DNA of 35,151 nt from Rickettsiales bacterium (GCA_031273075.1 JAISSM010000019.1:1-35151), one strand, 5' to 3'; positions 4,871-32,842 are shown, numbered from the stretch's first letter. Notes: generated from the letters alone by a model not told the origin. Program-made: numbers and translations.

Positions 4871-5416
4871 CTATCCTTCAATGCACCCGCGGCAATCTTT
4901 GAGATACTCCACCATTTTCATCACAAGGTCATCAAGGTCTGGGACGGATTTTGCCGGGGAAACGTCGACAAGCTCTATTTTTTTGTTTTCGGGGTCAATC
5001 ACCGCCGTGGCCGTTATCAACCGTTTGGTTTTTTCGTCTATATATTCCATCTGGACGTTGCTTATAAGGCATGAATCAATGAATTTGATATTCATGCGCG
5101 GGCCGTATATTTCAAACGAATCCCGACCCCAAAACTTCCATTCGACAGGATTGCCGTTGTCGATGATCAACTGTTCCCTGTCCCAAAAACCGGGCTTTAC
5201 ATACGTTCTGGTCACACATTTCACACTTTCATTATTACCGACCTTGACAGTTATTATTACATACGAATCGCCTTTTCTCGTATGACTGTGGCCGGGCTTG
5301 TCGCCAGGAAATCTTTTAAGCAACGCGTCTTTCCCAAACATACCCAGGTCCTTCAAGAAATGTGGCCGCTTTGTTTTGAAGGCACTTTTATAGCCAAATA
5401 ATGATTTGAATAGCAT
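4871..5416 (-). CDS. hypothetical protein (orphan, AT-rich)
   Basis: 181-aa ORF with AAGGATAAAAAATG ribosome-binding context and its own promoter. I recognise no family. Confidence 0.7.
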   Translation of the reverse strand: MLFKSLFGYKSAFKTKRPHFLKDLGMFGKDALLKRFPGDKPGHSHTRKGDSYVIITVKVGNNESVKCVTRTYVKPGFWDREQLIIDNGNPVEWKFWGRDSFEIYGPRMNIKFIDSCLISNVQMEYIDEKTKRLITATAVIDPENKKIELVDVSPAKSVPDLDDLVMKMVEYLKDCRGCIEG

Positions 5417-5490: not shown

Positions 5491-6045
5491 TTATTGGATA
5501 TGGGCGATATTTTTAAGGATTCCTATGAGACGGCCTATCTCAGCCCGTTTATATTCCGCATACTGCCCTTTAAGCGCGATTTCAACCGCCGCGTTTATTT
5601 CTTGGGCCAGCATGACGCCGCGGCCGGGAACGTCGCCGTCGTCATTCACCATATATGTTGTTTCGATGATCGGGCCGTGGAGGAAAGCGGGCTGCTCTAC
5701 ATAAATCCCAAATTTGTCTTTAAGCATCGCGCGGACATTCCCGTCATTCTTCCATCCGCAATGTTTTCTGGCAAAATTTTCCAGGGACTGTTCGGCATTG
5801 ATCGCAACCATGTAGGTTTTCCTACATATGCCCTTGCATACGAACGCGCGCTTCGGGCTGAGCGGCCCGGATTTTTTCTCCACGTTTTTGTCGGCAAAGA
5901 ACAGACATTCCGGACTGCAAAAAGCCCTATGTTTAAACTTTACCTTCTCGTGTTTGGCCCCTTTTATTTTAAGGCCTATTCCGACGACTATTTCGCCGAC
6001 CGGATTTGCGGACGCATCGGAAGATAAAGACAGGACATGTTCCAT
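5491..6045 (-). CDS. hypothetical protein with a CxxxC...CxxxC motif (orphan, AT-rich)
   Basis: 184-aa ORF with CAGGAATAAAAAATG context. Contains FCSPEC ... VCKGIC, four Cys that could bind zinc. I recognise no family. Confidence 0.7.
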   Translation of the reverse strand: MEHVLSLSSDASANPVGEIVVGIGLKIKGAKHEKVKFKHRAFCSPECLFFADKNVEKKSGPLSPKRAFVCKGICRKTYMVAINAEQSLENFARKHCGWKNDGNVRAMLKDKFGIYVEQPAFLHGPIIETTYMVNDDGDVPGRGVMLAQEINAAVEIALKGQYAEYKRAEIGRLIGILKNIAHIQ

Positions 6046-7678: not shown

Positions 7679-7684
7679 TTTAAT

Positions 7685-7712
7685 TAGCAAATAGCAGGTA
7701 GCAATTAGCAAT
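7685..7712. repeat. TAGCANN heptanucleotide tandem array (4 units)
   Basis: tagcaaa tagcagg tagcaat tagcaat. A near-identical array lies at 15966-15993. Confidence 0.85.
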
Positions 7713-7716
7713 TGTT

Positions 7717-7916: not shown

Positions 7917-8774
7917 TTATGTTATCGCGGCGCGGCGGCGGAGTTGTTTCAGCAATTGATCGGCCTGGAACAATGCGCGTTTGTAAATCGCGTTTTGTTT
8001 TATTATATCGTCCAGTTGTCCCCACTCTTTCGTTTTCTTTTTATCGCATATCAAAAATGTCCGCCCCTCCGTCAACGGCGACCACGCAAAGACTTCAAGC
8101 CCTATAAAGTGTTCGCGTACTTCCGGCGCAAGCTCGTACTCCAGGGCATTTATTTTTTGCGGCGCTCCACCGAGTTTTTTCGCCATATTCTCGGCATCGA
8201 TGCACGAGTTCGGTTTTCCCAATTTATCATATATCTCTTTCGGAACGTCTATAAGGCGCAGAAACGTCACGTCCAAGGGCAAACCGTGCGCCCTTTCCAA
8301 ATCCGCCATTTCCATATCCAAATCCGATTCCGAGACAGATATCGACGGAACCAGCGCGCGCATTATCATTATTTGCCACGAAAGCGTCGCGCGCGCATAA
8401 AGCCGCATTTGCGGATTATCCTTGTGTTCTTTTATCGCGGCCGCGACTTCCTTTTCAGACGGTTCTATTTTCATCGACTTGGCGTATTCGAGTTTTATAT
8501 AGTCGTCTATGATCGCGTTTTTCGCCGCGTCGCGATTATTAAGGGCCGGCGGTATTATCTTTGTTCTTTCCGTAATGTCGACGTCGGTTATCGGGTTGCC
8601 GTTCACGGTCGCGACGATCGTCGCCGCCATTGTCAATGAAGAATGAAGAATGAAGAATGAATAAAGAAAAATGAATAAAGCTCCCCCTCGGCGCCAAAGG
8701 CGCCACTCCCCCTCAAGGAGGGGGAGACAGGGGCCGCCCAGAAACCGAAATAAAAAACTTTCTTCATTCTTCAT
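7917..8774 (-). CDS. surA: SurA-like periplasmic chaperone (N-terminal chaperone domain, no obvious PPIase domain); start uncertain (8774 or 8630)
   Basis: ATVNGNPITDVDITERT... resembles the SurA N-terminal domain, and the gene lies directly downstream of lptD as in Proteobacteria. Only the 8774 start provides a signal-peptide-like N-terminus. Confidence 0.6.
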   Translation of the reverse strand: MKNEESFLFRFLGGPCLPLLEGEWRLWRRGGALFIFLYSFFILHSSLTMAATIVATVNGNPITDVDITERTKIIPPALNNRDAAKNAIIDDYIKLEYAKSMKIEPSEKEVAAAIKEHKDNPQMRLYARATLSWQIMIMRALVPSISVSESDLDMEMADLERAHGLPLDVTFLRLIDVPKEIYDKLGKPNSCIDAENMAKKLGGAPQKINALEYELAPEVREHFIGLEVFAWSPLTEGRTFLICDKKKTKEWGQLDDIIKQNAIYKRALFQADQLLKQLRRRAAIT

Positions 8775-8789
8775 TCTTCATTCTTCATT
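8635..8789. mobile_element. MITE-like element with 27-nt heptad terminal inverted repeats around GC hairpins
   Basis: AATGAA(GAATGAA)x3 at 8635-8661 faces (TTCATTC)x3TTCATT at 8763-8789. They flank hairpins ggcgcc-aaa-ggcgcc and ctccccct-caa-ggagggggag. Confidence 0.6.
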
Positions 8790-8792
8790 ATT

Positions 8793-10826
8793 TTACTTTC
8801 CCATTTTTATCGAAAATTTCAATTTGAACGACTGAGAGCCGCGAAAGCTCAATTCTTTGTCAGCATCGTATATTTTGCTCGCATTGTCAACGCTGTATAT
8901 GAATCCGAGCGTATAGCACGGATGTTCGTAATACACCCCCGCGTTGTATCTTTGCGGGGTTTGCTCTTTGAAATTATACACGCCCCAGCCGCGGACCGCC
9001 ATTCTGCCCGTAAGATAAACGCCCGCGCCGACGGTCCCTTCGGATATGTCGTCGCCGCCCCTGGTATAATCGTTGTCCAAAAACTGAACCGCCCATATGT
9101 ATCCGACCGACACATAGTTTTTCCCGCCGACGCGCACGTCCGTTTCCACATGGCGCAGATCGGCTCTTTCCTTGCCGAACCTGGATCTTGACGTAATGGA
9201 AAGCCCGTTCAGCGGATCAAGCCCCACGCGGCCGACCATATCGGACGCGCCGCGTCCAAGGGTATTATATCCGCTGTTGGGATCCGGACCGGAATCCGTG
9301 TCAAAGTCATAGGTTTGGCCTATGAAAATTTCCGCCCCGCGCCCCGCCTCGTCGTACCCGGTCCACATGATCCCATAATCCGCATACGTTCCGTTCACCC
9401 ATTCGTCGTATCCGGAATATCTGTTGTTCGAAAACAGCGACGCGTCGGATAAAATCGCGCCCCTGGAATCAAGATTCGCAAAGTTCTCGTTTCTGGACCG
9501 CCCCAGCGCCGTCACGCGCGCCTTCGGCCTTATGATTTGCGTGAAATCATTCCCGGCGCGGACAAACGGCATTTCCCAATCGACATAGCCGGACGGAAGC
9601 AGGCGCGATTCGTACCCGTCCCACATCCGATCCCTCGCGCTGTAATTATAATAGTAATAATGGTCGCTTCGCGCCGCGGCGCTTAGCGTGAATTTCTGCC
9701 ACGCGAATTCCAGCGGCGCGACCACGCGCCCCTCTCCTATCGCGCGGTTCACGGACCAATCGTTGTCCATATCGCCGATGCGCATCACGTCGCCCATGAA
9801 GCGGCCGTATAGATTTTCAGATATCCCGACCTGATATACGCCGTGGATCTTGGGCAAAATATCGCCGTCCGGAATCTTAGTCCGCCCCCAACCGCTTCTT
9901 AAGTCCTGGAATATGTTCGCGTCCATGGTCGCATAGCCGCGCTCTTCGAACAACTCCAACTTAACGTTCGATTCCAAAAACGGCTGGTCGTCGTAAAACT
10001 CGTATTGCTGAAGGTAAGTTTTGTCGGACGTGCGCTGAATATTCGCCTTGATGCGCGCGTTTTCGCCAAGCTCTATCGCATCGTTGTGGAACAGGTGCCA
10101 TCTGTCAAGCCCCGTTCCCCGCATTTTCGTGTACGACCCGGCCGTGTCGAATTCCGCGCGATCGGCGCGAAGGCGATGCTCTATCCGAACCAGCGGGTTT
10201 TCCCTGGTAAGGTACGTTCCGGTCACCGTCATATCGTGGTATCCGGAAAAATTTATGTAAAGCGGAACGTTTATCCCAGTTCCCGTATTGGTCGCGGAAC
10301 TGAATTCCGGAACAAGCAGGCCGGACCTGTATTTGACAGTCGGGTCCGGCTGAACGACAAGCGGAAGATAAAAAACCGGCACGCCGTACATATCGAACCA
10401 GAAATTATAAAAATACATTTCCTTGGCCGCGGCGTCGTGCGACGCCCCCGTCGCGCGGACCGTCCACGCCGTGACCGTTTCGTCGCAATTATGGCACGCG
10501 GTATAGGTTATATTGTCGGCCTTGGTCAAATCTTCATTTTTCCCGAACGTTTCGGCGGTCATCATCGTCCGTTCGTCCCACTCCATCACGACATTTTTTC
10601 CGCCCGCGGTCGTTTTCGACAGGTGCGCGTCCAAAAGCGTGATTTTCTGTCCGGTTTTTCCGACGATCTCCGTCTTGCCCGACGTTTTAAGGTTGCCCGA
10701 TTTCACGTTGTATTTCAATTTGTCCGCGGAAATTTCCTTGTATTCGACGTCAAGCGACGCCGCGTATGCCGCGGCAATGAAGAATGAAGAATGAAGAATG
10801 AAGAAAGAGCAAAGCAACTTTTTCAT
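8793..10826 (-). CDS. lptD: LPS-assembly outer-membrane protein LptD (OstA)
   Basis: 677 aa with signal peptide MKKLLCSFFILHSSFFIAAAYA, an OstA-like N-terminus and a large beta-barrel region rich in Y/G/aromatic-ended strands. Its ATG overlaps the stop of the upstream permease (ATGA). Confidence 0.88.
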   Translation of the reverse strand: MKKLLCSFFILHSSFFIAAAYAASLDVEYKEISADKLKYNVKSGNLKTSGKTEIVGKTGQKITLLDAHLSKTTAGGKNVVMEWDERTMMTAETFGKNEDLTKADNITYTACHNCDETVTAWTVRATGASHDAAAKEMYFYNFWFDMYGVPVFYLPLVVQPDPTVKYRSGLLVPEFSSATNTGTGINVPLYINFSGYHDMTVTGTYLTRENPLVRIEHRLRADRAEFDTAGSYTKMRGTGLDRWHLFHNDAIELGENARIKANIQRTSDKTYLQQYEFYDDQPFLESNVKLELFEERGYATMDANIFQDLRSGWGRTKIPDGDILPKIHGVYQVGISENLYGRFMGDVMRIGDMDNDWSVNRAIGEGRVVAPLEFAWQKFTLSAAARSDHYYYYNYSARDRMWDGYESRLLPSGYVDWEMPFVRAGNDFTQIIRPKARVTALGRSRNENFANLDSRGAILSDASLFSNNRYSGYDEWVNGTYADYGIMWTGYDEAGRGAEIFIGQTYDFDTDSGPDPNSGYNTLGRGASDMVGRVGLDPLNGLSITSRSRFGKERADLRHVETDVRVGGKNYVSVGYIWAVQFLDNDYTRGGDDISEGTVGAGVYLTGRMAVRGWGVYNFKEQTPQRYNAGVYYEHPCYTLGFIYSVDNASKIYDADKELSFRGSQSFKLKFSIKMGK
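10776..10802. repeat. GAATGAA heptad array inside the lptD signal-peptide codons
   Basis: AATGAA(GAATGAA)x3, identical to 8635-8661. In minus sense it encodes SFFILHSSFFI. Confidence 0.85.
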
Positions 10827-15962: not shown

Positions 15963-15965
15963 AAT

Positions 15966-15993
15966 TAGCAATTAGCAGATAGCAGGTAGCAAT
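15966..15993. repeat. TAGCANN heptanucleotide tandem array (4 units)
   Basis: tagcaat tagcaga tagcagg tagcaat. Same position relative to a terminator as the 7685-7712 array. Confidence 0.85.
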
Positions 15994-16706
15994 TAAGGGG
16001 TGCAAGCGGTATAAGTGAACGTTCCTTTTGAATCCGAATAAGTGCCCGATATGGTAAGTGCCGGTGAAGTGGTTTCTTCATAACCAGTTCCGCATGACGC
16101 CGTGTCCGCAACGGTTTTGTAATTGGAATTCGTGGTACATGTTCCGCTCGCCGGACAGGTTACGGAGGATATGGTGGTTGGCGCCGGTATTGTGAGGAGC
16201 GCGGAACGCGAACACATGCTGTACGTGCCGTCCCGGATACAGTAGATCGCGCAGCGGTTCGCGCAAAACTGCCGACAGTCGGCCGCGCCGAGGTCGTAGT
16301 TGCCGCCGAAGTACACCCAGGGCGCGCCATTACTGTCCGCCGGACAGGTTTGATTATTAGTACTATCAACTATGTTGGTGACACGACACCAGCAATAGTA
16401 TCCACTACTAGAAGTGTTGGCCACGGGTGGATTTGTCGAATTGTTTGCGGCGCATCTCGATTGACCGCTTATACTTCCAGTTCTGCCAAGTCCGTTTGTT
16501 ATTGTAACAGTAAACGTTGCATCGGCACTGGATGAGGCCGTTTGGCATGTAGGGTTGCATGTATGACTGCTGTTACTGGATATACTGGTATTGCTATTCC
16601 AAGGGTGGGTGCTTACCCAATCGCATGGTATTCCTTTGCACAGTTTTACGGCAAACGCCGGCGGCGCAAGCGCAATAAAGAAAGTGATCAATAAAAGTTT
16701 TTTCAT
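15993..16706 (-). CDS. Cys/Ser/Thr/Asn-rich secreted protein (orphan)
   Basis: 237 aa from ATG 16704-16706 with an AAGGA SD. Signal peptide MKKLLLITFFIALAPPAFA, about 20 Cys, AT-rich codons. The track's upstream extension reads through repeats. Confidence 0.7.
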   Translation of the reverse strand: MKKLLLITFFIALAPPAFAVKLCKGIPCDWVSTHPWNSNTSISSNSSHTCNPTCQTASSSADATFTVTITNGLGRTGSISGQSRCAANNSTNPPVANTSSSGYYCWCRVTNIVDSTNNQTCPADSNGAPWVYFGGNYDLGAADCRQFCANRCAIYCIRDGTYSMCSRSALLTIPAPTTISSVTCPASGTCTTNSNYKTVADTASCGTGYEETTSPALTISGTYSDSKGTFTYTACTP

Positions 16707-17136: not shown

Positions 17137-17245
17137 TAAATTAATTATCAATTATAAATTATTAATTATTAATCATTATAAATTCCCCGGGTTTTGGCGG
17201 ATTTTCCCCGCCCGAAAGGGCCTGAAAAATATTTTTCATGCAAAC

Positions 17246-19499: not shown

Positions 19500-19540
19500 T
19501 TTTTTACCTTTTGGTTAGTTTATCATTTTCCCAACTGGTT

Positions 19541-19659
19541 GTTCGCGCCAGAATTGCGCCAAATCGGAACAAAACCTCCCCACTCATGTACCCATCAGTA
19601 CACTTCGGGGTCGGTTTCGCACCACCTTGGCACATTCTAACGCGAACAAGTGCGTTAGA
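19541..19659 (-). repeat. intercistronic structured RNA element, type B (copy 1, rpsK|rpoA)
   Basis: Outer stem GTTCGCG/CGCGAAC. It shares about 100 nt with copy 4, including the core CACTCATGTA...GTACACTTCGGGG. Confidence 0.8.
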
Positions 19660-19665
19660 CGCGCA

Positions 19666-20425: not shown

Positions 20426-20443
20426 ATACTTTCTTCCTTTAAT

Positions 20444-20489
20444 CTATCGGGTCGCGTGAAACTTTTGACGCGACGTCCTTGCTTGACCC
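20444..20489 (-). repeat. intercistronic structured RNA element, type A minimal form (copy 2, secY|rpsM)
   Basis: ctatcGGGTCGCGTgaaacttttgACGCGACgtccttgcttgaccc. Only the outer hairpin and the conserved flanks are present. Confidence 0.75.
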
Positions 20490-20541
20490 TTTTTTATTCT
20501 TTTTATTACGGTTTCCTATTTTATCCTAATATTCCGCAATG

Positions 20542-21858: not shown

Positions 21859-22313
21859 TTGGATTCTATAGTTCCGCCCGCTTTTACGACCGCCGCCTCC
21901 GCCGCCTTGGACCATTTGGCCGCCACTATGCTCATCTTGGATGCGATCGCGCCTTTGGCCAGAACTTTCAATCCGTCAGATTCGCCTTTGATTATTTTCG
22001 CGGCTTTAAGGGTTTCAAGCGTGATTTCTTTCGACGCGTCTATCCTTTTCGCCTTTATGAATTTTTCCAAATCGCCCAGATTTATTTCGGCGTATTCCTT
22101 ATGAAACGGGCTTACAAAACCGAACTTCGGAAAGCGGCGCAAAATATTAAGCTGCCCCCCCTGGAACGTCGCGATCTTGCGCGCGCCGGCGCGCGCCTTG
22201 GCGCCCTTGTGCCCGCGACCAGCCGTCTTGCCTTTGCCGGACGCTATTCCGCGGCCCACTCTTTTCCTATAGTGAGTCGCCCCAGGCTTGCTTTTCAATT
22301 CGTTAAGTTTCAT
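21855..22313 (-). CDS. rplO: 50S ribosomal protein L15
   Basis: [37 protein letters not shown]... is canonical L15. Confidence 0.97.
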
Positions 22314-22869: not shown

Positions 22870-23256
22870 TTATTTTACCTTTTTTATATTATTCGAACAT
22901 TCCATAATATAGTATGTTTTTGCCGCAATTGCCGAAGCAAAAGCCGATGCCGAGGCGCTGAACATCGGGATCGTGGTCGATAAATCAACCATTTCCGCCG
23001 GAACAGACGACAACACCGTGCCGGACAACATAAGAGGCATGCCCGATATCGCCAAAATCCAATTTGCCGCCTCATTTTCCTTTGGAAGCCGCCGGCCCCG
23101 CTCCAAATTAAATGTAAGTTCTTTACACAGCCAACTCGTAGAACATTTTTCACATAACCAATCCGCAAAATTTTCGAGCTTAGTCGACAGGGTTGCGCCT
23201 TGACCCGGTTGCAACAAATTGCCATCCAAAAAATTCTTGCCAAGAGGGTTCGTCAT
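22870..23256 (-). CDS. orphan cistron between rplR and rpsE (128 aa, hydrophobic C-terminal half)
   Basis: ATG 23254-23256 lies 16 nt after the rplR TGA with an AGGA SD. Its TAA is 2 nt before the rpsE ATG. AT-rich. Putative TM segments: [23 protein letters not shown] and [17 protein letters not shown]. Confidence 0.6.
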
Positions 23257-23272
23257 ATTTTTTATTCCTGTA

Positions 23273-23623
23273 TCAAAACTTCACGCCGCCGGCGCGGATC
23301 GCATCCGCAAGGGCTTTGATGCGGCCGTGGTATTTGTATCCGCCGCGGTCGAAATACACTTCCTTCAACTTGGCCTTCTTCGCGCGTTCGGCAAACATCT
23401 TTCCGACTTCCTCTGCTCCGGCCGCGTTCCAACCCTTGCCTTTGAAGTCTTTTTCCTTGCTCGACGCGGCGCAGATCGTCCTGCCGTTCACATCGTCGAT
23501 CGCCTGTATCTCCATATGGCTGTTGGAACGGAACGCGCAGAGGCGCACCCGGCCGTAATTTTTTCTTTTAAGAGAGGCGCGGTTCGCAAATGTGCGCCGC
23601 TCGCCCGAAGTTAAGTGTTTCAT
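23273..23623 (-). CDS. rplR: 50S ribosomal protein L18
   Basis: ...RVRLCAFRSNSHMEIQAIDDVNGRTICAASS...DRGGYKYHGRIKALADAIRAGGVKF is canonical L18. Confidence 0.97.
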   Translation of the reverse strand: MKHLTSGERRTFANRASLKRKNYGRVRLCAFRSNSHMEIQAIDDVNGRTICAASSKEKDFKGKGWNAAGAEEVGKMFAERAKKAKLKEVYFDRGGYKYHGRIKALADAIRAGGVKF

Positions 23624-23639
23624 TTTTTATCCATTCGTT

Positions 23640-23837
23640 CTATTTTTCTTTCGCTATTTTCGCAATTTGGTCCTTGGAATACGACTTCGACTGCTTCCAC
23701 TCCTTGAATAATTTTAATATCTCTTTTTTACATTCAACGCCCTTGGATATGATCTGGCCTTTTTCCACATCCACCAAATCATAGGTTCTTCTCTCCACAA
23801 CTTTCAATGAATCGGTTTTCCTTATTACCTTTTCCAT
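23640..23837 (-). CDS. orphan cistron between rplF and rplR (65 aa, Lys-rich)
   Basis: ATG 23835-23837 lies 4 nt after the rplF TAG, and its stop is 16 nt before the rplR ATG. AT-rich. Starts MEKVIRKTDSLKVVERRTYDLVDVEKGQIISKGVECKKEILKLFKEWK... Confidence 0.55.
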   Translation of the reverse strand: MEKVIRKTDSLKVVERRTYDLVDVEKGQIISKGVECKKEILKLFKEWKQSKSYSKDQIAKIAKEK

Positions 23838-23841
23838 TTTA

Positions 23842-24390
23842 CTACTTCTTCTTGCCTTCTTTGCGGCGAATCGTTTCGTTTTTATAGAATATGCCCTTGC
23901 CCTTGTACGGTTCCGGCTTGCGGACTTTGCGGATCTTGTCAGCGAATATCCCGACCGCGTTCTTGTCCGTGCCCGAGATTTTGAATTCCGTCGCGGATGA
24001 AACCTCCACCGATATTCCATTTGGAATCGGCATAACGACGTCGTGCGAATAACCCGCGGTCAAAACCAGATCTTTTCCTTTGACGACCGCCTTGAATCCG
24101 ACGCCTTTCATTCCCATCTCTATAAAATATCCCATCGTGACTCCCGTGACCGCCTGTTTGATATTCCGCGCCATTGTGCCCCACATCGCGCGCGACGCCT
24201 TGTCATCCGGATTAAACGGCGAGACCAAAACCGATTTTTCATCAATGTCGACTTTGACAAGGTTCGAATTGGCGGTGTCGACGCGAACGGAAAGTTCGCC
24301 CTTCGGCCCGCGGACGACTATCGCGCCGCCCTCTTTCGCGACGGTTACGCCGTTCGGAATTTCTATCTTATTTTTGCCTGCTCTCGACAT
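23842..24390 (-). CDS. rplF: 50S ribosomal protein L6
   Basis: MSRAGKNKIEIPNGVTVAKEGGAIVVRGPKGELS... is canonical L6. Confidence 0.97.
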   Translation of the reverse strand: MSRAGKNKIEIPNGVTVAKEGGAIVVRGPKGELSVRVDTANSNLVKVDIDEKSVLVSPFNPDDKASRAMWGTMARNIKQAVTGVTMGYFIEMGMKGVGFKAVVKGKDLVLTAGYSHDVVMPIPNGISVEVSSATEFKISGTDKNAVGIFADKIRKVRKPEPYKGKGIFYKNETIRRKEGKKK

Positions 24391-24400
24391 GATCTTTTCC

Positions 24401-24799
24401 TTAAATTACGCGGCACAAAACTTCGCCGCCGACATTCTTCACGCGCGCGGCCGCATCCGTCATTACGCCCATCGGGGTCGACACTATCGCGACGCCAAGC
24501 CCGTTCATGACGCGCGGCATTTTGTCCACGCTGAAATACGCGCGGCGACCCGGCTTTGATACGACCGATATCTCCTGGATCGCGCCCGACCCGCCCGTGT
24601 ATTTAAGCGTCGCTTCCAGGTCGAATTTGTTCGCGCCCGCGGCAACCTTTTTGAAACCGGTTAAAAACCCCTCGTCCACAAGGACGGAAAGCACGGCTTC
24701 CTTAAGCGCCGAATACGGCATGGAAACGGTTTCCTTGCCGGCCTTCTGCCCGTTGCGAATTCTCGTAATCATGTCCCCGACGGGGTGAGTCAATGCCAT
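24401..24799 (-). CDS. rpsH: 30S ribosomal protein S8
   Basis: MALTHPVGDMITRIRNGQKAGKETV... is canonical S8. Confidence 0.97.
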   Translation of the reverse strand: MALTHPVGDMITRIRNGQKAGKETVSMPYSALKEAVLSVLVDEGFLTGFKKVAAGANKFDLEATLKYTGGSGAIQEISVVSKPGRRAYFSVDKMPRVMNGLGVAIVSTPMGVMTDAAARVKNVGGEVLCRVI

Positions 24800-24815
24800 T
24801 ATTATTTTTCCTTTG

Positions 24816-25118
24816 TTACCAACTTGATTTCCGGACGCCGGGAAGTTTTCCCTCGCTTGCCAATTGTCTCGTCTGCTGGCGGCAAAGGCCGAACTGACGG
24901 CTGTACGAGCGCGACCGGCCCGTGATCGCGCAGCGGTTGCGAAGACGCGTCTTGTTCGCGTTGCGCGGAAGTTTCGCCAGCTTTTTCATGGCGTCGATCC
25001 TTTCCTCAGGCGTCGCGTTAAGGGACATCTTCTCTTTCAAAAGATCGCGTTTGCGCGCGTATTTCGCGACCATCTTCACGCGCCTTTCCTGCTTCAAAAT
25101 CAATGCCTTCTTCGCCAT
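24816..25118 (-). CDS. rpsN: 30S ribosomal protein S14 (long form)
   Basis: [25 protein letters not shown]...LPGVRKSSW is canonical S14. Confidence 0.97.
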
Positions 25119-25133
25119 ATCCGTTTTTCCTTT

Positions 25134-25679
25134 TTATTTGAGCACAAGCGGCAATCCCATTTTGGAAAGCAGCGCCCGGCCCTCGTCGTCCGTTTTCGCA
25201 CTCGTCGCGATTATTATGTCCATGCCGCGGATCGATTCCAACTTTTCAACCGATATCTCCGGGAAGATCAGATGTTCTTTGATCCCGAACGCATAGTTTC
25301 CTCTTCCGTCGAATTTCGATTTGGACAGCCCTTGAAAATCCTTGATGCGCGGAAGCGCGATCGTGACCAGCTTGTCGAAAAAGTCGTACATTCTTTTGCC
25401 GCGAAGGGTCACCATGGTTCCGACCGCCTGGCCTTCGCGCAGTTTGAAATTGGCTATGGATTTTTTCGCGAACGTCGTCTTCGGCTTTTGCGCCGCGATA
25501 AGCGTCATATCGGCGACGGCCGCGTCCAATTTTTTCTTGTCCAAAGCCCCCTCGCCCACGCCCATGTTCAAAACTATTTTCAAAAGTTTCGGAACCTGCA
25601 TATCGTTCTTGTATCCGAACTCGGCCTTAAGTTCCGGAACGATTTTGCTTTTATAAACATCAAACAATCTTGCCTTCAT
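25134..25679 (-). CDS. rplE: 50S ribosomal protein L5
   Basis: [25 protein letters not shown]... from ATG 25677-25679 with an AAGGTG SD. The longer track start is unlikely. Confidence 0.95.
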
Positions 25680-25738
25680 CTTCTTCACCTTTTGGCCTTC
25701 CGTTTCAGCGGTCGGCGGGTTTCGCCCCATTCTATCAT

Positions 25739-26068
25739 CTATTTCTTCGATTGCAACTTCTTAGATTGCAGTTTTTCGCCGGATTTTTTCGTCACGCGGA
25801 TCTTTTTCCCACTCTCCATCACGTACCCGACGCGCGACGGCTTTTTCGTTTTCTCGTCTAAAATCGCGACGTTGGAGACGTGTATCTTGGATTCCACGTC
25901 GTCGATATGCCCGGGCTTTTCCTTGGTCGGCTTCACATGCCTTTTTACGCGCGCGACGCCTTCGACCACGACTTTGGATTCGGCCGGATAGGCGGCGATG
26001 ACTTTGCCCTTCGCGCCTTTGAATTTTCCGGATATAACGACGACCTCGTCGCCTTTCAGTATCTTCAT
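25739..26068 (-). CDS. rplX: 50S ribosomal protein L24
   Basis: [23 protein letters not shown]... contains the KOW motif. Confidence 0.97.
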
Positions 26069-26071
26069 TTT

Positions 26072-26338
26072 TTACTCCACATCCACTTTGGTGTCCTGTT
26101 CCACGCCGATTTTCGATTTCAGTATCCATGTCTTGGTTTTTGAAATCGGACGGTGTTCCTCTATGGTCACGACTTCGCCGACTTTGCCGGAATTGTCTTC
26201 GTCGTGCGCCTTGTACTTTTTATTGTGCTTCACGAATTTTCCATACAGGGGATGGCGGAACTTGCGTTCCACCTCCACAACGACGGTCTTGTCGTTTTTA
26301 TTGCTGACTATTGTTCCTTGCAGTACTCTTCTAGGCAT
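26072..26338 (-). CDS. rpsQ: 30S ribosomal protein S17
   Basis: [36 protein letters not shown]... is canonical S17. It sits after rplN, which is a non-canonical position. Confidence 0.96.
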
Positions 26339-26352
26339 CTTGTTTTCCTTTT

Positions 26353-26727
26353 TTATAATACTTCCGGCGCGAGGGAAATTATCTTCTGCACGTCGTATTT
26401 TTTTCTTGTTTCGCGCGCGACCGGTCCGAATATGCGGGTGCCGATGGGCTCGAAATTATTCTTATTTATCAGGACGACGGCGTTGTCGTCAAAGCGGATG
26501 ATGGATCCGTCCGCGCGCCGCGTCGGGAATTTCGTCCTTATTATAATGGCGCGCTGAACCGTTCCTTTCTGAACCTTGCCGCGCGGAATGGCGTCCTTTA
26601 TCGCGACGACGATTTTGTCGCCGACGGCCGCATAGCGGCGATGCGATCCGCCCAGCACTTTTATGCAAAGGCATTTTTTCGCGCCGCTGTTGTCCGCTAC
26701 GTTTAATATAGTTTCAGTTTGAATCAT
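26353..26727 (-). CDS. rplN: 50S ribosomal protein L14
   Basis: [28 protein letters not shown]... is canonical L14. Confidence 0.97.
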
Positions 26728-26746
26728 ATCTTTGTGTTTCCTTTAA

Positions 26747-26872
26747 CCTGTCGGGTCGCGTGAAATTCCCGCCACTTCGGGGCGGAGCCCGCCCACTCAT
26801 GTAACTATCCGTACACTTCGGGGCGGGTTCCACCCCAAATTGTCGGTTTTTGACGCGACGTTCTTGTTAGAC
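26747..26872 (-). repeat. intercistronic structured RNA element, type A full form (copy 3, rpmC|rplN)
   Basis: Outer stem GTCGCGT/ACGCGAC, a middle module, and the apical core CACTCATGTAACTATCCGTACACTTCGGGG. Confidence 0.8.
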
Positions 26873-26874
26873 TT

Positions 26875-27069
26875 TTATTTATTTGTTCCTTGCTTATTTA
26901 ACTTTGTCTTTATGCGGGCGACCTCGCGGCGATTTTTGCGGATCACGTGCGTCTTCGGCAATTGCCCCGCCGCATGTTGAAACCGAAGATTCATCCCGTC
27001 TTTTTTAAGATCGGCCAGTTTTGATTCCAACGCTTCCCTGTCCAAATTCACATCTTTCGCCTTTGCCAT
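26875..27069 (-). CDS. rpmC: 50S ribosomal protein L29
   Basis: ...LESKLADLKKDGMNLRFQHAAGQLPKTHVIRKNRREVARIKT is canonical L29. Confidence 0.95.
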   Translation of the reverse strand: MAKAKDVNLDREALESKLADLKKDGMNLRFQHAAGQLPKTHVIRKNRREVARIKTKLNKQGTNK

Positions 27070-27070
27070 T

Positions 27071-27265
27071 TTATTTCACCTCGTACTTTTTCAACTGCCT
27101 TTTTAACCGGCCATTTTGTTTCATCATCTTTTCAAATTTATCCTTTGCCGACGCCGTTTCTTCTTTTGCAAGAAAAACCTCTTTCATAATGTCCGTGTCC
27201 GATGCCAACTTCAAGATTTGATCCAAATGATACTTGATATTTTCAAACTCAAGCATCTTCGCCAT
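27071..27265 (-). CDS. orphan cistron between rplP and rpmC (64 aa, helical/charged)
   Basis: ATG 27263-27265 lies 2 nt after the rplP TAA, and its own TAA is 1 nt before the rpmC ATG. AT-rich. Starts MAKMLEFENIKYHLDQILKLASDTDIMKEVFLAKEE... Confidence 0.55.
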   Translation of the reverse strand: MAKMLEFENIKYHLDQILKLASDTDIMKEVFLAKEETASAKDKFEKMMKQNGRLKRQLKKYEVK

Positions 27266-27267
27266 TT

Positions 27268-27681
27268 TTAATTCGCCTTTCTTTCGACTATTTTCGTTTT
27301 GACCGGAAGCTTCGCGGACGCGAGCGTCAACGCCTCGATCGCGATTTCCGGCTTCACGCCGTCCATTTCGAATATTATGCGGCCCGGCTTTACGCGGCAC
27401 ACCCAGTATTCCACCGCGCCCTTTCCCTTTCCCATGCGGACGCCCAAGGGTTTTTTCGTCACCGGCACGTCCGGAAAAATGCGGATCCAAAGACGGCCAA
27501 GGCGGCGCATGCGGCGCGTGATGGCGCGGCGGGCGGCCTCTATCTGGCGGCTTGTCACGCGCTCCGGCGTCATGGCTTTAAGTCCGAACGACCCGAACGC
27601 AAGTTCCGATCCGCCTTTGGCGACGCCGTGAATGCGGCCCTTGTGCTGTTTCTTAAACTTTGTTTTCTTCGGTTGCAACAT
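27268..27681 (-). CDS. rplP: 50S ribosomal protein L16
   Basis: [24 protein letters not shown]... is canonical L16. Confidence 0.97.
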
Positions 27682-27699
27682 TTTCTTTTACCTTATCCG

Positions 27700-28407
27700 T
27701 CACGCGGGCCTTATTTGTCTTTCCGACGATGCGGCGAATTCCGTCGGGCGCGACAATTCGGCCGCCATTTTTTCCTTGTTCACGACGTCGCCGGTATAGA
27801 CCCAAACCTTGACGCCGATAACTCCGTACGTCGTTTTGGCCTGAATTGCCGCATAGTCGATGTCCGCGCGAAGCGTGTGAAGAGGAATCTGCCCTTCGCG
27901 GATCGATTCCGACCGCGCGATCTCCGCGCCGTTAAGACGGCCGCTGCACGTGATCTTGATTCCCTTAGCGCCGGATTTTTCCGCATTCTGCATCGCCTTT
28001 TTCATGGCGCGCTTAAACGACACGCGACCCTCTATCTGCTGGGCTATATTCTTTGCGACCAATTGCGCGTTCAAATCGGGCTTGCGAACTTCAAATATGT
28101 TCACGACAACCTGATCATTTTTGACCAGTCTTTTAACGGCGTTGCGAAGGGCCTCTATGTCCGCGCCGTTCTTTCCGATGATCATGCCCGGACGGGACGT
28201 GTGTATCGTCACGACAAGTTTTTTGGCAAAGCGCTCTATCACAACGCGGGCGAGGCCCGCCTTGGCCAGCTTTTTTTCGATAAAGTTACGAATCTTCACA
28301 TCTTCTATCAACAGGCCCGGATAGTCCTTTTTCGACGCGATCCAACGCGAATCCGGCGTCTTGTTTATGAATTGTCTTAATGAAACTGGTGATACCTTCT
28401 GCCCCAT
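27700..28407 (-). CDS. rpsC: 30S ribosomal protein S3
   Basis: [16 protein letters not shown]..., with a KH domain and a [12 protein letters not shown] motif. Confidence 0.97.
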
Positions 28408-28427
28408 ATTTTTTATCCTTCTTTACT

Positions 28428-28551
28428 TGCCGGTTCGCGTTATAATGCGCCAAATCGGCACGAAACCTCCCCGCTCATGTAACTATCCGTACACTTCGGG
28501 GTCGGTTTCGCACCACCTTGGCACATTCTAACGCGAAGTCCTTGCTTGTCC
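28428..28551 (-). repeat. intercistronic structured RNA element, type B (copy 4, rplV|rpsC)
   Basis: In minus sense it folds into a rod hairpin of about 110 nt (stems of 9, 8, 11, 5 and 5 bp) with several G.U pairs. Same apical core as copies 1, 3 and 6. Confidence 0.8.
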
Positions 28552-28555
28552 ATTT

Positions 28556-28990
28556 TTATTTCTTTTTTGTTTCTTTTTTCTTTTCCGTTTTTGCGACTTT
28601 CGTTTTCTCTTTCGGCGCGGGCGCACCCGATTCCAAAACGATCGTAAGATGCGAGAACGGTTTCAAAATCGGCTTTGCCTGACCGCGCGGCCCGGCGCGA
28701 TAACGCTTCATCGTGATCGCCTTACCGACCCAGATTTCCTTCACGAACAAAGAGTCCGCGTTCATCTTCTTGTTGTTCTCCGCGTTGGCGATCGCGGACA
28801 AAAGGGTTTTCAAAACTTCGCCCGCAACGCGCTTTTTGGAAAATTTCAGCGCGTCGACCGCCTTCGCCACCGGAAGGCCGCGGACCAAATCCGTCACCAG
28901 TTGCAGTTTATACATAGACGTGCGGATAAGCTTGTTGTACGCGCGCACCTGATTTTCCGCCAAATTGTATCTTGTCTTTTCTTTCGCCAT
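28556..28990 (-). CDS. rplV: 50S ribosomal protein L22 with a Lys-rich C-terminal tail
   Basis: ...AYNKLIRTSMYKLQLVTDLVRGLPVAKAVDALKFSKKRVA... is canonical L22. Confidence 0.96.
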   Translation of the reverse strand: MAKEKTRYNLAENQVRAYNKLIRTSMYKLQLVTDLVRGLPVAKAVDALKFSKKRVAGEVLKTLLSAIANAENNKKMNADSLFVKEIWVGKAITMKRYRAGPRGQAKPILKPFSHLTIVLESGAPAPKEKTKVAKTEKKKETKKK

Positions 28991-29271
28991 TATTTCTTTT
29001 CCACCGCTTTTTTGTTCGCCGCGTGGCCCTTGAACGTCCGCGTCGGCGCGAATTCGCCAAGCTTGTGCCCTATCATATCCTCCACGACCGCGACCGGAAT
29101 AAATTTGCGCCCGTTGTGAACGTCGAACGTAAGCCCCACCATCTGGGGAATAACGGTCGATCCGCGCGACCAGGTCTTGATCGGCTTTTTATCGTTCGCT
29201 TCCAAAGCCTTTGCGGACTTTTTCAACACGGATGGATGAACGTATGGACCTTTCCACACACTTCTTGTCAT
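28990..29271 (-). CDS. rpsS: 30S ribosomal protein S19
   Basis: [18 protein letters not shown]...[16 protein letters not shown] from ATG 29269-29271. Confidence 0.96.
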
Positions 29272-29292
29272 TTTATTTGTTCCTTTTTTACT

Positions 29293-29376
29293 CTGCCGGG
29301 TCGCGTGAAATTCCCGCCACTTCGGGGCGGGGTCCACCCCAAATTGTCGGTTTTTGACGCGACGTCCTTGCTTGCC
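29293..29376 (-). repeat. intercistronic structured RNA element, type A intermediate form (copy 5, rplB|rpsS)
   Basis: Outer stem plus the middle module (cccgcc-acttcgg-ggcggg; ggtccacccc), without the apical core. Confidence 0.75.
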
Positions 29377-29397
29377 TATTTTCTTTTATTTACCTTT

Positions 29398-30231
29398 TTA
29401 TTTCTTCTTGCTCAAGTGACGAGAGCGGATAATGAACTTCTGCGTCAGTTTGTTTTTCCGCGTGCGGAATCCTTTGGCCAAAACGCCGGTCCTGGATTGC
29501 GGATGATGCCCCTTGCCGCGGCCGTTTCCGCCGCCGTGCGGATGGTCGACCGGATTCATGGCGACGCCGCGCGTCGTCGGGCGAATGCCCTTCCACCTTG
29601 CGCGGCCGGCTTTGCCCAAATTGATATTGCGCTGATCCGGATTGGATACGACGCCGATCGTGGCCATGCAATCGGAATGAACTTTGCGAAGTTCGCCCGA
29701 ACCCATCCTTATCTGGGCGTAAACGCCGTCCTTGCCCATAAGCTGAACCCCGCAGCCCGCGCTTCGCGCGAATTGGGCACCCGCGCCGGGTTTCGTTTCC
29801 ACATTATGAATCGTCGTTCCGATCGGAATATTTTTAAGCGGCATCGCGTTGCCCGGCATGATGTCCGCCGTATCGCTTGCGACGACCGTATCCCCGACCT
29901 TCAATTTCTGCGGCGCCAGGATATACGACTTTTCGCCGTCTTTGTATTCCAAAAGCGCGATGAATCCCGTTCTGTTCGGATCATATTCAAGGCGCACGAC
30001 CTTCGCCGGAACGTCTTTTTTAGAGCGCTTGAAATCGATCAGGCGGTATTTTTTCTTGTGCCCGGCGCCCTGATGCGGAACGGTCAGGCGTCCGTAATTG
30101 TTGCGGCCGCCTTTCGATTTGATGCCTCTGGTCAACGATTTTTCCGGATCGCCCTTATGCAGTTCGGAATGGTCGACAAGAACCATGCCGCGCATTCCGG
30201 GGGTAACTGGTTTATAGGTTTTAAGAGCCAT
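29398..30231 (-). CDS. rplB: 50S ribosomal protein L2
   Basis: [17 protein letters not shown]...[24 protein letters not shown] from ATG 30229-30231. Confidence 0.97.
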
Positions 30232-30290
30232 TTCTTTACCTTTTCGATCCGTCTCTAACATCGCTTTGGATTATCAGACGAATTCCTTTT

Positions 30291-30650
30291 TTACTTTTTC
30301 GCGCTTTCGGCCAAAACGTCCACGCCGTGACCTTTAGGCAAAGTCACATACGCTTTTTTGACCGTCTTTTGCGCGCCTTTATTTTTTCCGCGGAAAGATT
30401 TCACCTTTCCTTTTATATTCGCTACGTTCACTTTTTTCGGCGAAACGCCGTAAATCGCCAAAATCGCGTTCTCTATGTCTTTCTTGGTCGCATTCGGCGC
30501 AACTTCAAAAACAAGACCGTCCGATTCGGCCAACTTAGCGGCCTTTTCGGAAATGATCGGCCGGCGCAAAACGTCATAGACCCCCGCCGTCACGACCGCC
30601 TTTTTTTCAACCTTTTTTCCCGTCGAAACTTTCGCTTTCTTTTCCGTCAT
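30291..30650 (-). CDS. rplW: 50S ribosomal protein L23
   Basis: ...YDVLRRPIISEKAAKLAESDGLVFEVAPNATKKDIENAILAIYGV... is canonical L23. Confidence 0.95.
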   Translation of the reverse strand: MTEKKAKVSTGKKVEKKAVVTAGVYDVLRRPIISEKAAKLAESDGLVFEVAPNATKKDIENAILAIYGVSPKKVNVANIKGKVKSFRGKNKGAQKTVKKAYVTLPKGHGVDVLAESAKK

Positions 30651-30967
30651 TGTTTTACCTTTGCGCTTTTCTTTTGTGCGATTTTCTTTACATGAACGAA
30701 AAACTGCGTCGTCACCGACGGCTTCCCTCTTTTGTTTTTGTTTGTTTCACTGGATTTGAAATTAAATTTTCCGACCCTATATCCTTCTTCTTTTAAGCTC
30801 ATATTTACAAGACTTTTGACTGCGCTTATGGGAAGATCATTCGCTTCAGATTGTCCTTCTATCGTCACCACCGCCATAAGCTCTTCTTTAGGCAACCCAC
30901 CCTCGGGAAAATTATTCATGATTGCCAGTTCAGTCTTTTTCGAAGGAAGCTTAATCGTATACGCCAT
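30647..30967 (-). CDS. orphan cistron between rplD and rplW (106 aa, basic C-terminal tail)
   Basis: ATG 30965-30967 lies 1 nt after the rplD TAA, and its stop overlaps the rplW ATG (ATGA). AT-rich. Starts MAYTIKLPSKKTELAIMNNFPEGG and ends KNKRGKPSVTTQFFVHVKKIAQKKSAKVKQ. Confidence 0.6.
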   Translation of the reverse strand: MAYTIKLPSKKTELAIMNNFPEGGLPKEELMAVVTIEGQSEANDLPISAVKSLVNMSLKEEGYRVGKFNFKSSETNKNKRGKPSVTTQFFVHVKKIAQKKSAKVKQ

Positions 30968-30968
30968 T

Positions 30969-31592
30969 TTATCCGCCCAACCTTTCTTCAAGCGCTTTCG
31001 CGCCGTCTTTTGTCAGAACCAAAGCCTTGTGCCTTAGAATATCGCGAACGTTCGCGCCGATCGCCGGCAAGACATCCACGTTCTTTATGTTCGCGATGGA
31101 TTTCTTAAAATTCGCGTCGATTTCGGCGCCGCCTATGAACAACGCCGAAGTCAGTTTCATTTTCGCCAACTTTTTCGCCACGTCGCCCGTCTTCGCCGCG
31201 GCGACTTTTTCCGAATCCAGAACGACAAGCGTCTTTGCGGCAGCATGGGACGACAGCGCCATTTTAAGCCCAAGCGTTCTGATTTTCTTCGGAAGGTCCA
31301 GCGCGTGCGAGCGCAAGACCGGCCCATGGATCACGCCGCCGCCGCGCATATGAACGTTGCGCTTTTCGCCCTGGCGCGCGTTTCCGGTTTTCTTTTGCTT
31401 GTAAACTTTGCGGCCGGATCCCGAAACGTCGGAAACGGATTTAACGGCATGCGTTCCCTGGCGCGCGTTGGCCAATTGCCAGTGAACAACCCGCTGTAGA
31501 ATATCCGCGCGCGCATCAACGCCGAAAACCGCGTCGGACAATTCCGCGCTTCCCGCGACCTTTCCGTCAAAATTTATCACATCCATTTTCAT
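30969..31592 (-). CDS. rplD: 50S ribosomal protein L4
   Basis: ...GSGRKVYKQKKTGNARQGEKRNVHMRGGGVIHGP... is canonical L4. Confidence 0.97.
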   Translation of the reverse strand: MKMDVINFDGKVAGSAELSDAVFGVDARADILQRVVHWQLANARQGTHAVKSVSDVSGSGRKVYKQKKTGNARQGEKRNVHMRGGGVIHGPVLRSHALDLPKKIRTLGLKMALSSHAAAKTLVVLDSEKVAAAKTGDVAKKLAKMKLTSALFIGGAEIDANFKKSIANIKNVDVLPAIGANVRDILRHKALVLTKDGAKALEERLGG

Positions 31593-32690: not shown

Positions 32691-32700
32691 CTTCTTTTAA

Positions 32701-32828
32701 TCCGTCGGGTCGCACGGAATTCCCGCCATTATGGGTGGTTTCCGCCCACTCATGTAATTATCCATACACTTCGGGGCGAAAACCACCTCATACTGTCGGT
32801 TTTCTGTGCGACCGTTTTTGTTTGACCC
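32701..32828 (-). repeat. intercistronic structured RNA element, type A full form (copy 6, tuf|rpsJ)
   Basis: Outer stem GGTCGCAC/GTGCGACC, compensatory relative to copy 3. A 14-bp middle stem and the apical core CACTCATGTAATTATCCATACACTTCGGGG are present. Confidence 0.8.
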
Positions 32829-32842
32829 TTTTTCTTTTACTT

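Follow-up and report, generated by a model that had tools for sequence, protein, structure and literature searches.

The string of ribosomal protein genes in the S10 and spc operons is a textbook example of frozen gene order, and the question raised by the locus described here is what four small open reading frames (ORFs) are doing inside it. The stretch we analyzed, called the window below, is one entire contig of 35,151 nucleotides (nt) from an NCBI metagenome-assembled genome (MAG) filed as 'Rickettsiales bacterium', a termite-gut alphaproteobacterium of the Rs-D84 lineage. Genomes of this lineage are about 1 Mb in size, and an obligate symbiotic or parasitic life is suspected (PMC12306168). 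From what the sequence tells us, we lean towards reading the four ORFs, orfA to orfD, as hitch-hiking ORFan genes embedded in the operons and having real products. Our verdict is that they are not core ribosomal proteins; they belong to a rapidly turning over set of genes that use the expression of the ribosomal protein operons. Fast gain, loss and replacement at ribosomal protein junctions is seen across the clade. The small genes of sister genomes are different ones and occupy many other junctions, which makes the string a hotspot of new and short-lived genes within the lineage.

Four small cistrons in the S10/spc operons

The genes of the S10, spc and alpha operons lie on the minus strand in the order fusA', tuf, rpsJ, rplC, rplD, orfA, rplW, rplB, rpsS, rplV, rpsC, rplP, orfB, rpmC, rplN, rpsQ, rplX, rplE, rpsN, rpsH, rplF, orfC, rplR, orfD, rpsE, rplO, secY, rpsM, rpsK, rpoA, rplQ. 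An earlier sequence-only reading of this DNA had placed ORFs of 106, 64, 65 and 128 amino acids in four junctions on the operon strand, and all were found where it had put them. It had also set their ATG starts 1-16 nt past the upstream stop, and their ends 1-16 nt before the next ribosomal protein start or overlapping it as ATGA; the junction strings read in the sequence agree at both ends. The NCBI annotation calls each of the four a 'hypothetical protein'.

At the rplD/rplW junction, orfA (30647..30967 including the stop, minus strand; MDR1826281.1) encodes 106 amino acids with a net charge of +9. It starts 1 nt past the rplD stop (TAA-A-ATG), and its TGA overlaps the rplW ATG (ATGA). The rplP/rpmC junction holds orfB (27071..27265, minus strand; MDR1826274.1), which encodes a Lys/Glu-rich product of 64 amino acids, starts past rplP as TAA-AA-ATG and is separated by 1 nt from the start of rpmC, whose Shine-Dalgarno sequence is located in the 3' end of orfB (GAGGTGAAATAAA). 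Between rplF and rplR, orfC (23640..23837, minus strand; MDR1826265.1) encodes 65 amino acids with a net charge of +7; it starts past rplF as TAG-TAAA-ATG and ends 16 nt from rplR. The largest of the four, orfD (22870..23256, minus strand; MDR1826263.1), fills the rplR/rpsE junction with 128 codons, starting 16 nt past the rplR TGA and ending 2 nt from rpsE. Its final codons (AAAAAGGTAAAATAA) hold the rpsE Shine-Dalgarno sequence, which is present in relatives too and is the same AAAAAGGTAAAA that is found before rpsE in relatives that have no insert. Overall, a Shine-Dalgarno sequence for the next gene (A[AG]GGT[AG]AAA) lies within the last codons of orfA, orfB and orfD. The spacings of 1, 2, 4 and 16 nt upstream, and of an ATGA overlap, 1, 16 and 2 nt downstream, are those of translational coupling, and the ORFs are kept in operon orientation with this coupling-type spacing.

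The products of orfA, orfB and orfC are basic (net charge +4 to +9) and have no hydrophobic segment. That of orfD has a CxxC..C motif in its N-terminal part and a hydrophobic C-terminal half, with a peak hydropathy of 1.68 over 19 amino acids, and is probably membrane-associated. The suggestion that the orphans might be small membrane proteins is plausible for orfD alone. All four products are probably accessory small proteins.

The composition of the orphans had been judged by eye to be richer in AT and poorer in CpG than that of the ribosomal protein genes, and the computed values uphold this. For orfA to orfD, GC is 0.37-0.45 (0.40 in orfA), GC at third codon positions (GC3) 0.42-0.52 and the observed/expected ratio (o/e) of CpG 1.09-1.43; the 24 flanking genes have 0.46-0.60, 0.54-0.76 and 1.25-2.14, respectively. 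At 64-128 amino acids, and with GC and GC3 below those of the flanks, the four genes are short and AT-richer than core genes, as ORFans are. Chance was assessed by 2000 dinucleotide shuffles per gap, asking in each for a sense ORF that fills the gap. The shuffle P was 0/2000 for orfA, 0.0095 for orfB, 0.0035 for orfC and 0.004 for orfD; the gap-filling ORFs are longer than chance allows, because shuffles almost never yield such sense ORFs. A codon model trained on the ribosomal protein genes of the window preferred the annotated frame for orfA, orfB and orfC and was ambiguous for orfD. Identical DNA is present in independent Logan assemblies of SRR14710913, and orfA also in two ENA assemblies, so that an assembly artefact is not the source of the ORFs.

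Profile searches of the four products against Pfam, NCBIfam, PHROGs and PADLOC gave nothing above noise, and no ribosomal protein family matched in Pfam or NCBIfam at E<=1. A phmmer search of all PDB chains, every solved ribosome included, returned nothing meaningful, and Smith-Waterman alignments with shuffles found no significant similarity between the orphans and the adjacent ribosomal proteins. The sequence-only reading had seen no likeness to any ribosomal protein family, and these searches bear it out. No match to any of the four was found by tblastn among 50,697 phage records or among the related Rs-D84 loci, nor in scans of IMG/VR viral contigs with orfA and orfD. Searched against 5.8 billion (5.8e9) proteins, orfA found nothing outside its own 90% cluster; orfB, orfC and orfD are each a singleton 90% cluster. 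A HMMER search of 1.84 billion (1.84e9) representative proteins with orfD recovered itself and one weak match only, and no relative. That match is to a protein of 1084 residues with Cys repeats, six of which together give E=1e-4; we take it to reflect a W-x-C-x-x-C motif and not homology. For orfB and orfC, the family libraries, phage records and related loci contain no match, and no exhaustive separate search of these two was made. The four genes thus have no homologue beyond a narrow lineage, orfB and orfC on the basis of the narrower searches.

An AlphaFold2 (AF2) model of orfA from the single sequence has a mean predicted local distance difference test score (pLDDT) of 63.6 and a predicted template modelling score (pTM) of 0.50, with the order beta-beta-beta-alpha-beta-beta, and represents a moderately confident compact fold. 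Foldseek found no significant match for it in PDB (best E=0.015, TM-score below 0.5), and no nuclease is among the top matches listed. The model of orfD is poor (pLDDT 51) and helical. Profile and structure searches had been named beforehand as a check, and those covered here (Pfam, NCBIfam and PDB, with AF2 and Foldseek for orfA) gave no known family. Two duplications that seemed plausible on inspection were considered and rejected. A tandem duplicate of rplW (L23) as the source of orfA is unsupported by Smith-Waterman with shuffles, Pfam and the orfA fold search, and a duplicate of rpmC (L29) as the source of orfB, which shares its length of 64 amino acids and a Met-Ala-Lys start, is unsupported by Smith-Waterman with shuffles and Pfam. 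Comparison of the orphan DNA by blastn and tblastx with all fetched loci revealed no donor. The inserts are not known RNA elements, because no Rfam family lies within the window.

Junction contents in related genomes and the distribution of orfA

A genome scan with RpsC gave 80 loci of the order Rs-D84, from Candidatus Enterousia and termite-gut MAGs; individual loci are referred to below by L numbers. In a metagenome scan with rplR the best relative was no closer than 73%, and exact look-ups of rplR and rpmC gave matches from the same sample alone. Typical Candidatus Enterousia have tight junctions and the normal rpmC-rpsQ-rplN order. Most of them have a gap of ~290-300 nt at rpsE/rplO (a few have a shorter one), where rpmD would sit, and a putative rpmD is kept. 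The termite-gut clade nearest to the window comprises L003, L004, L005, L167, L169, L170/171, L172 and L173. This clade has lost rpmD, and its rplN-rpsQ order is inverted wherever the region is sequenced. The absence of L30 had been noted from the window alone and is confirmed there: rpmD is missing, and rpsE and rplO overlap by 4 nt (22310-22313). In the window rplN (26353-26727) is followed by rpsQ (26072-26338), giving rpmC-rplN-rpsQ-rplX and not the near-universal rpmC-rpsQ-rplN-rplX; the inversion is common to L003, L004, L005, L166, L167, L169 and L170 and does not occur in Candidatus Enterousia. The stretch from secY to rpsM lacks infA, rpmJ, adk and map, and secY in its longest ORF shares 61 nt with rplO.

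Across the termite-gut clade, small ORFs on the operon strand are present at 15 different junctions, with up to nine junctions occupied per genome. The window has four inserted junctions, L003 nine, L004 six, L167 seven and L169 almost none, and they are mostly different junctions; ORFs at one and the same junction are mostly unrelated between genomes. In L003 they are rplD/rplW, rplW/rplB, rplB/rpsS, rpsS/rplV, rplP/rpmC, rpmC/rplN, rpsQ/rplX, rplX/rplE and rplO/secY, with two ORFs each at rplB/rpsS and rpsS/rplV. The first of these pairs (L003 8015-8703) is paralogous and Cys-rich, with 110 and 117 amino acids; the second (L003 9002-9474) consists of an 82-residue transmembrane (TM) protein followed by a 74-residue protein that has an L004 orthologue. 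The sequence-only reading described its four junctions as not known to carry genes. This is true in general, but in the order studied here small ORFs at such places are a recurring habit. Among the 37 gaps of at least 150 nt found clade-wide, sense ORFs cover 0.84 and antisense ORFs 0.63 (Wilcoxon p=1.4e-5). Such gaps are rare elsewhere, with 8 of ~518 junction observations reaching at least 150 nt in 80 diverse metagenome loci.

The four genes of the window are patchily distributed, and they do not have the conserved presence in related genomes that marks a ribosomal protein. The synteny check that had been proposed found orfC and orfD missing from L172 and L173, which at 81% nt identity are the nearest sampled relatives in that region and have spacers of 9-18 nt, and orfA missing from five loci (L003, L004, L005, L167 and L169). 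Like L172 and L173, the loci L170, L003, L004 and L169 have no orfC, and across all six the gap measures between -1 and 32 nt; orfD is also absent from L003 and L169, and orfB from L004, L167 and L169. The rplP/rpmC junctions of L003 and L005 contain ORFs of a size similar to orfB, with 15-22% identity (z=3.0); homology is unproven. A kinship of orfA with the rplD/rplW ORF of L022, seen by eye, was not significant (z=1.2). In L170 and L171 (77% nt identity) the rplR/rpsE gap is exactly 405 nt, as in the window, and contains a different ORF (L170 3294-3680; L171 505-876) for a protein of 128 amino acids with two TM segments. The match of this ORF to orfD is confined to an N-terminal motif of 10-15 residues, 'G.NF.D.N.L..LL.P' (BLASTP E=0.07), and the ungapped nt identity is 0.32 where 0.26 is expected. 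This may represent either extreme divergence under a length constraint or replacement of one cassette by another.

Where orthologues exist, the sequences indicate that junction ORFs are real genes. Three orthologous pairs in L003 and L004 have 41-57% amino acid identity and a ratio of nonsynonymous to synonymous substitution rates (dN/dS, or omega) of ~0.2, with dS saturated. Enterousia families at rplF/rplR and rplO/secY evolve fast (26-60% amino acid identity, omega 0.25-0.84). At rplF/rplR, the vertebrate-gut Enterousia L052-L054, L060, L062, L064 and L068 have a gene for a TM protein of 53-60 amino acids, and at rplO/secY of L054, L062, L064 and L078 there is an ORF of 133-148 amino acids with an N-terminal hydrophobic stretch like a signal peptide. 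A TM-like segment is predicted in ~8 of 27 clade junction ORFs, orfD included. Junctions are filled in other ways as well. The 9-nt rplD/rplW spacer of L004 reads TAA-AA-ATG-AAA-TAA, a mini-ORF of M-K-stop at the site of full-length ORFs elsewhere. Palindromic simple-repeat spacers of 83-123 nt without ORFs, a different junction filler, occur in L011 (rplP/rpmC, rplF/rplR, rplR/rpsE), L019 (rplP/rpmC, rplF/rplR) and L080 (rplR/rpsE); examples are GGCACTAGG.../...CCTAGTGCC and TGGTGGTTGG.../...CCACCAGCA.

Outside the window's own sample, orfA was found in the same junction on two ENA contigs from other samples, L164 (ERZ27257293) and L165 (ERZ27257343). It differs from the window copy at 1 of 318 nt in L164, where rplD differs by 5.4% and rplW by 6.3%, and at 3 of 318 nt in L165, where the corresponding figures are 10.1% and 14.1%. 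Across assemblies orfA is thus 99.1-99.7% identical between flanking genes that differ by 5-14%, mostly at synonymous sites, and its divergence is below the flank rate (binomial p=1.3e-7 for L164 and 7e-13 for L165). The tract of near-identity between the window and L164 runs from 30586 to 31069 (minus strand), with 1 difference in 484 nt, and takes in orfA, the last ~100 nt of rplD and the first ~64 nt of rplW. That of L165 covers ~30658-30995, as judged from difference positions and 60-nt sliding counts. Beyond orfA, the identical tract extends over 27-100 nt of rplD and 0-64 nt of rplW and is a putative recombination or co-conversion tract. Per-gene identities of L173, which is from the same sample as L165, fit the same genome; this locus has neither orfC nor orfD. 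Because near-identical copies sit between flanks that have diverged by 5-14%, orfA appears to have spread recently and is younger than the divergence of its carrier strains. The simplest reading of these alignments is that already diverged genomes recently received it, or were swept by it, through recombination within the conserved flanks.

Weighing the explanations

The geometry of the junctions suggests how such genes could be maintained. A promoterless insert would start at the initiation or coupling site past the upstream stop, which in relatives served the downstream ribosomal protein gene, and would pass ribosomes to the next ribosomal protein gene via the Shine-Dalgarno sequence that its final codons contain. 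With ribosome traffic uninterrupted, the insert would be expressed free of charge, with no promoter of its own and no polar damage, and inserts would persist only where this handover of translation is satisfied. The conserved ribosomal protein genes may also act as homology arms for transfer between relatives. The sequence-only reading had offered hitch-hiking cassettes as one of its two suggestions, and these fit the 15 occupied junctions in sister genomes, the spread of orfA and the ORFan-type composition.

Several observations weigh against reading the four ORFs as hitch-hiking genes with real products. Besides its ambiguous frame support, orfD contains an ORF of 119 amino acids in another frame. 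The codon-model scores of all four ORFs are near zero, so selection on their products may be weak. Purifying selection on them is unmeasurable, since orfB, orfC and orfD have no orthologue and the copies of orfA are almost identical. The searches turned up no donor sequence, no recombinase and none of the hallmarks of a mobile element, and comparison of the insert boundaries with empty sites revealed no target-site duplications and no terminal or inverted repeats; the similar A-rich contexts with an ATG at both ends of the inserts are ordinary initiation regions. The spread of orfA stands on two short contigs of 1.4 kb. A less parsimonious history for it is that the strains are ~99% identical and that imports of divergent DNA replaced the flank on either side.

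The strongest of the competing accounts, which we nevertheless regard as doubtful, makes the frame and the ends of the ORFs, and not the protein, the object of selection. Junk inserts would be tolerated only if translated from stop to start, as a segment left untranslated would uncouple translation of the cistrons or leave the mRNA open to Rho or RNases. It is consistent with this that the sole conserved-looking parts of the ORFs are their ends, that is the start context and the 3' Shine-Dalgarno sequence. The ORFs at rplR/rpsE in the window and in L170/L171 have the same gap of 405 nt and the same 128 codons and share only ~15 N-terminal residues, and at rplP/rpmC the gaps of the window, L003 and L005 all measure 196-199 nt, yet the ORFs that fill them are 15-22% identical. 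Codon-model scores of ~0, the AT-drifted composition and an omega of up to 0.84 in some Enterousia junction ORFs point the same way. Selection for frame and ends explains neither the origin of the DNA nor the sweep of orfA between diverged genomes, and it is at odds with the protein-level constraint on the orthologous ORFs of L003 and L004 (dN/dS ~0.2), with the moderately confident compact fold predicted from the orfA sequence alone, and with the ORF-free gaps of 116-152 nt that are tolerated elsewhere in the same operons. That the four are annotation or assembly artefacts, or chance ORFs in non-coding spacers, would suit the ambiguous frame of orfD and its long alternative ORF. Independent assemblies reproduce the sequence, shuffling rejects chance ORFs and the sense-strand bias extends across the clade, and we consider this explanation extremely improbable.

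The other suggestion of the sequence-only reading was that the ORFs encode lineage-specific ribosome-associated proteins made in ribosomal protein stoichiometry, which might, for example, make up for the missing L30 or for altered rRNA in a reduced genome. The small size and basic charge (+4 to +9) of the orfA, orfB and orfC products, the geometry, which implies co-translation with ribosomal proteins, and the loss of L30 in this clade would all agree with such a function. The presence of the ORFs is species-specific, while the loss of L30 spans the termite-gut clade and includes L169, which is nearly free of inserts; there is no similarity to a ribosomal protein family or to a ribosome chain in PDB, the Foldseek search with orfA gave no significant match, orfD is hydrophobic, and orfA is more recent than the split between its carrier strains. 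Species restriction and the lack of ribosomal protein or PDB matches speak against a core role, and we judge the ribosomal explanation quite improbable. Nor do we expect selfish or defence modules, a class that would take in toxin-antitoxin systems, type I toxins, phage morons, elements like homing endonucleases and integron cassettes; these seem to us highly improbable. The identical orfA insert with short identical tracts of flank in diverged alleles resembles homing co-conversion, a TM-like segment is found in ~8 of 27 clade junction ORFs, and AT-richness such as that of the inserts is often true of mobile DNA. Searches of PADLOC (0 families at E<=1), PHROGs, Pfam, phage records and viral contigs were nevertheless negative, no nuclease motif was found, there is no space for an attC site, the boundaries have no inverted repeats or target-site duplications, terminator-like sites occur at chance level, and there is no prophage context, the neighbours all being housekeeping genes. 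The toxin-like character that had been mooted for the peptides is unsupported by PADLOC and Pfam alike.

We return to hitch-hiking ORFan genes as the favoured reading, which can be taken one speculative step further. We think it unlikely, if worth stating, that the S10/spc operons of the Rs-D84 termite-gut clade serve as an integrase-free cassette platform for promoterless ORFans. If this were true, landing in junctions would be filtered by the need for translation into the next ribosomal protein gene, ORFans would cross species by homologous recombination in ultra-conserved ribosomal protein flanks, and the most conserved operon would double as a shared and highly expressed landing pad in a genome of ~1 Mb. 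It would be a site of gene birth or exchange, some products of which could become ribosome- or host-interaction factors.

More generally, the 15 invaded junctions and the one insert apparently caught spreading suggest that operon interiors can be permissive if the continuity of translation is preserved. They offer a clean natural system for asking where bacterial ORFans arise and how they are first expressed, as each insert comes with what the geometry suggests is guaranteed high expression, with defined boundaries and with empty-site relatives. If any product does bind the ribosome, it would mean that lineage-specific ribosome factors are added in reduced-genome symbionts. The interest of the locus comes from the clade-wide pattern and the orfA sweep and not from the four genes taken alone.

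Other features of the window and comparison with known systems

Six untranslated junctions of the window contain members of a GC-rich structured repeat family: tuf/rpsJ (32691-32842), rplB/rpsS (29272-29397), rplV/rpsC (28408-28555), rpmC/rplN (26728-26874), secY/rpsM (20426-20541) and rpsK/rpoA (19500-19665). A basal stem GUCGCGU/ACGCGAC lies immediately 5' of the Shine-Dalgarno sequence, and most copies are expanded by long nested near-perfect hairpins, with fold z-scores of -5.9 and -8.5. The strict motif was found in this genome only, not in relatives. These repeats may be elements of the repetitive extragenic palindromic (REP) or miniature inverted-repeat transposable element (MITE) type, or leader or processing sites at sub-operon boundaries. 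There are promoter-like matches near the secY/rpsM and rplV/rpsC gaps.

Tandem repeats of heptanucleotides are found at 8635-8675, 8760-8789, 10776-10805, 7682-7713, 15963-15995, 2519-2551 and 17140-17178. Copies of (AATGAAG)4-6 lie in the signal-peptide regions ('FFILHSS') of an lptD-like ORF (8793-10826) and a SurA-like ORF (7917-8774), at the 5' ends or close to them, and also make perfect inverted repeats of 32 nt around lptD. Two intergenic sites have (AATTAGC)4.6, pheT contains (TTCGGGA)4.7, and (ATTAATT)5.6 is found at 17140-17178. Units of 7 nt near the start of coding sequences suggest phase variation by strand slippage.

For three additional ORFans of the window, Pfam gave no match. 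Two of them (4871-5416 and 5491-6045) are in tandem upstream of rplT-pheS-pheT, where infC normally sits; the third (15993-16706) follows infB and encodes a Cys/Ser/Thr-rich product with a hydrophobic N-terminal stretch like a signal peptide. They had been said to look like the four junction ORFs, and they do follow the same trend in a milder form: GC3 is 0.52-0.56 and CpG o/e 1.2-1.4, both lower than in most housekeeping genes, whose GC3 is 0.63-0.71, save for 0.57 in the SurA-like ORF.

Bacterial ORFans have been described as short and AT-rich (PMC3514957), and their origin is debated (PMC12315717, PMC13012023). Like them, orfA to orfD lack homologues beyond a narrow lineage, are short, AT-richer and less well adapted in codon usage, and are patchy among relatives; orfA at least looks imported or spread and not vertically inherited. 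Unlike ORFans in general, which mostly occur in islands, in prophages or in variable parts of the genome and have their own signals, they lie promoterless inside the S10/spc operons with the geometry of coupling, and ORFs of their kind recur in the clade.

As small deviant genes without homology to each other, occupying one slot in related genomes and gained and lost fast against a conserved backbone, they also resemble phage morons. Morons typically are situated in prophages and have a promoter and a terminator of their own, whereas the junction ORFs lack both a phage context and a terminator and would have to be expressed from the host operon. PHROGs, IMG/VR and GenBank phage records were negative, and terminator-like sites did not exceed chance. 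Free-standing homing endonuclease genes and intronless homing offer a parallel to orfA, which is near-identical in alleles with diverged flanks and short, putatively co-converted tracts. Searches of orfA in Pfam, PHROGs and PDB and with Foldseek detected neither a domain nor a motif of a nuclease, and there was no Pfam match to LAGLIDADG, GIY-YIG, HNH, His-Cys box or PD-(D/E)XK; an identical insert with co-converted flanks in diverged alleles is explained equally well by ordinary homologous recombination plus selection. None of orfA to orfD has the attC inverted repeat of an integron cassette at its 3' end, and the neighbours identified (by their translations, and by Pfam for two) are housekeeping genes, no dedicated integrase search having been made. 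Membership of a defence or toxin-antitoxin family is not indicated by PADLOC (0 families at E<=1) or Pfam (none).

In the literature searched we found no paper on ORFan invasion of ribosomal protein operon junctions, which is not proof of absence. The nearest precedent is a survey of the ribosomal protein operon cluster in Gammaproteobacteria and Bacilli, in which the insertions highlighted are of a few genes of known function, mainly between operons; examples are tusDCB and bfd-bfr between operons and nrdHEF within the rpoBC operon (PMC8046335). In both cases foreign or relocated genes have entered the most conserved gene cluster of bacteria. Unlike the insertions of that survey, those described here are single ORFan cistrons, lie within operons and are repeated, at 15 junctions in one clade.

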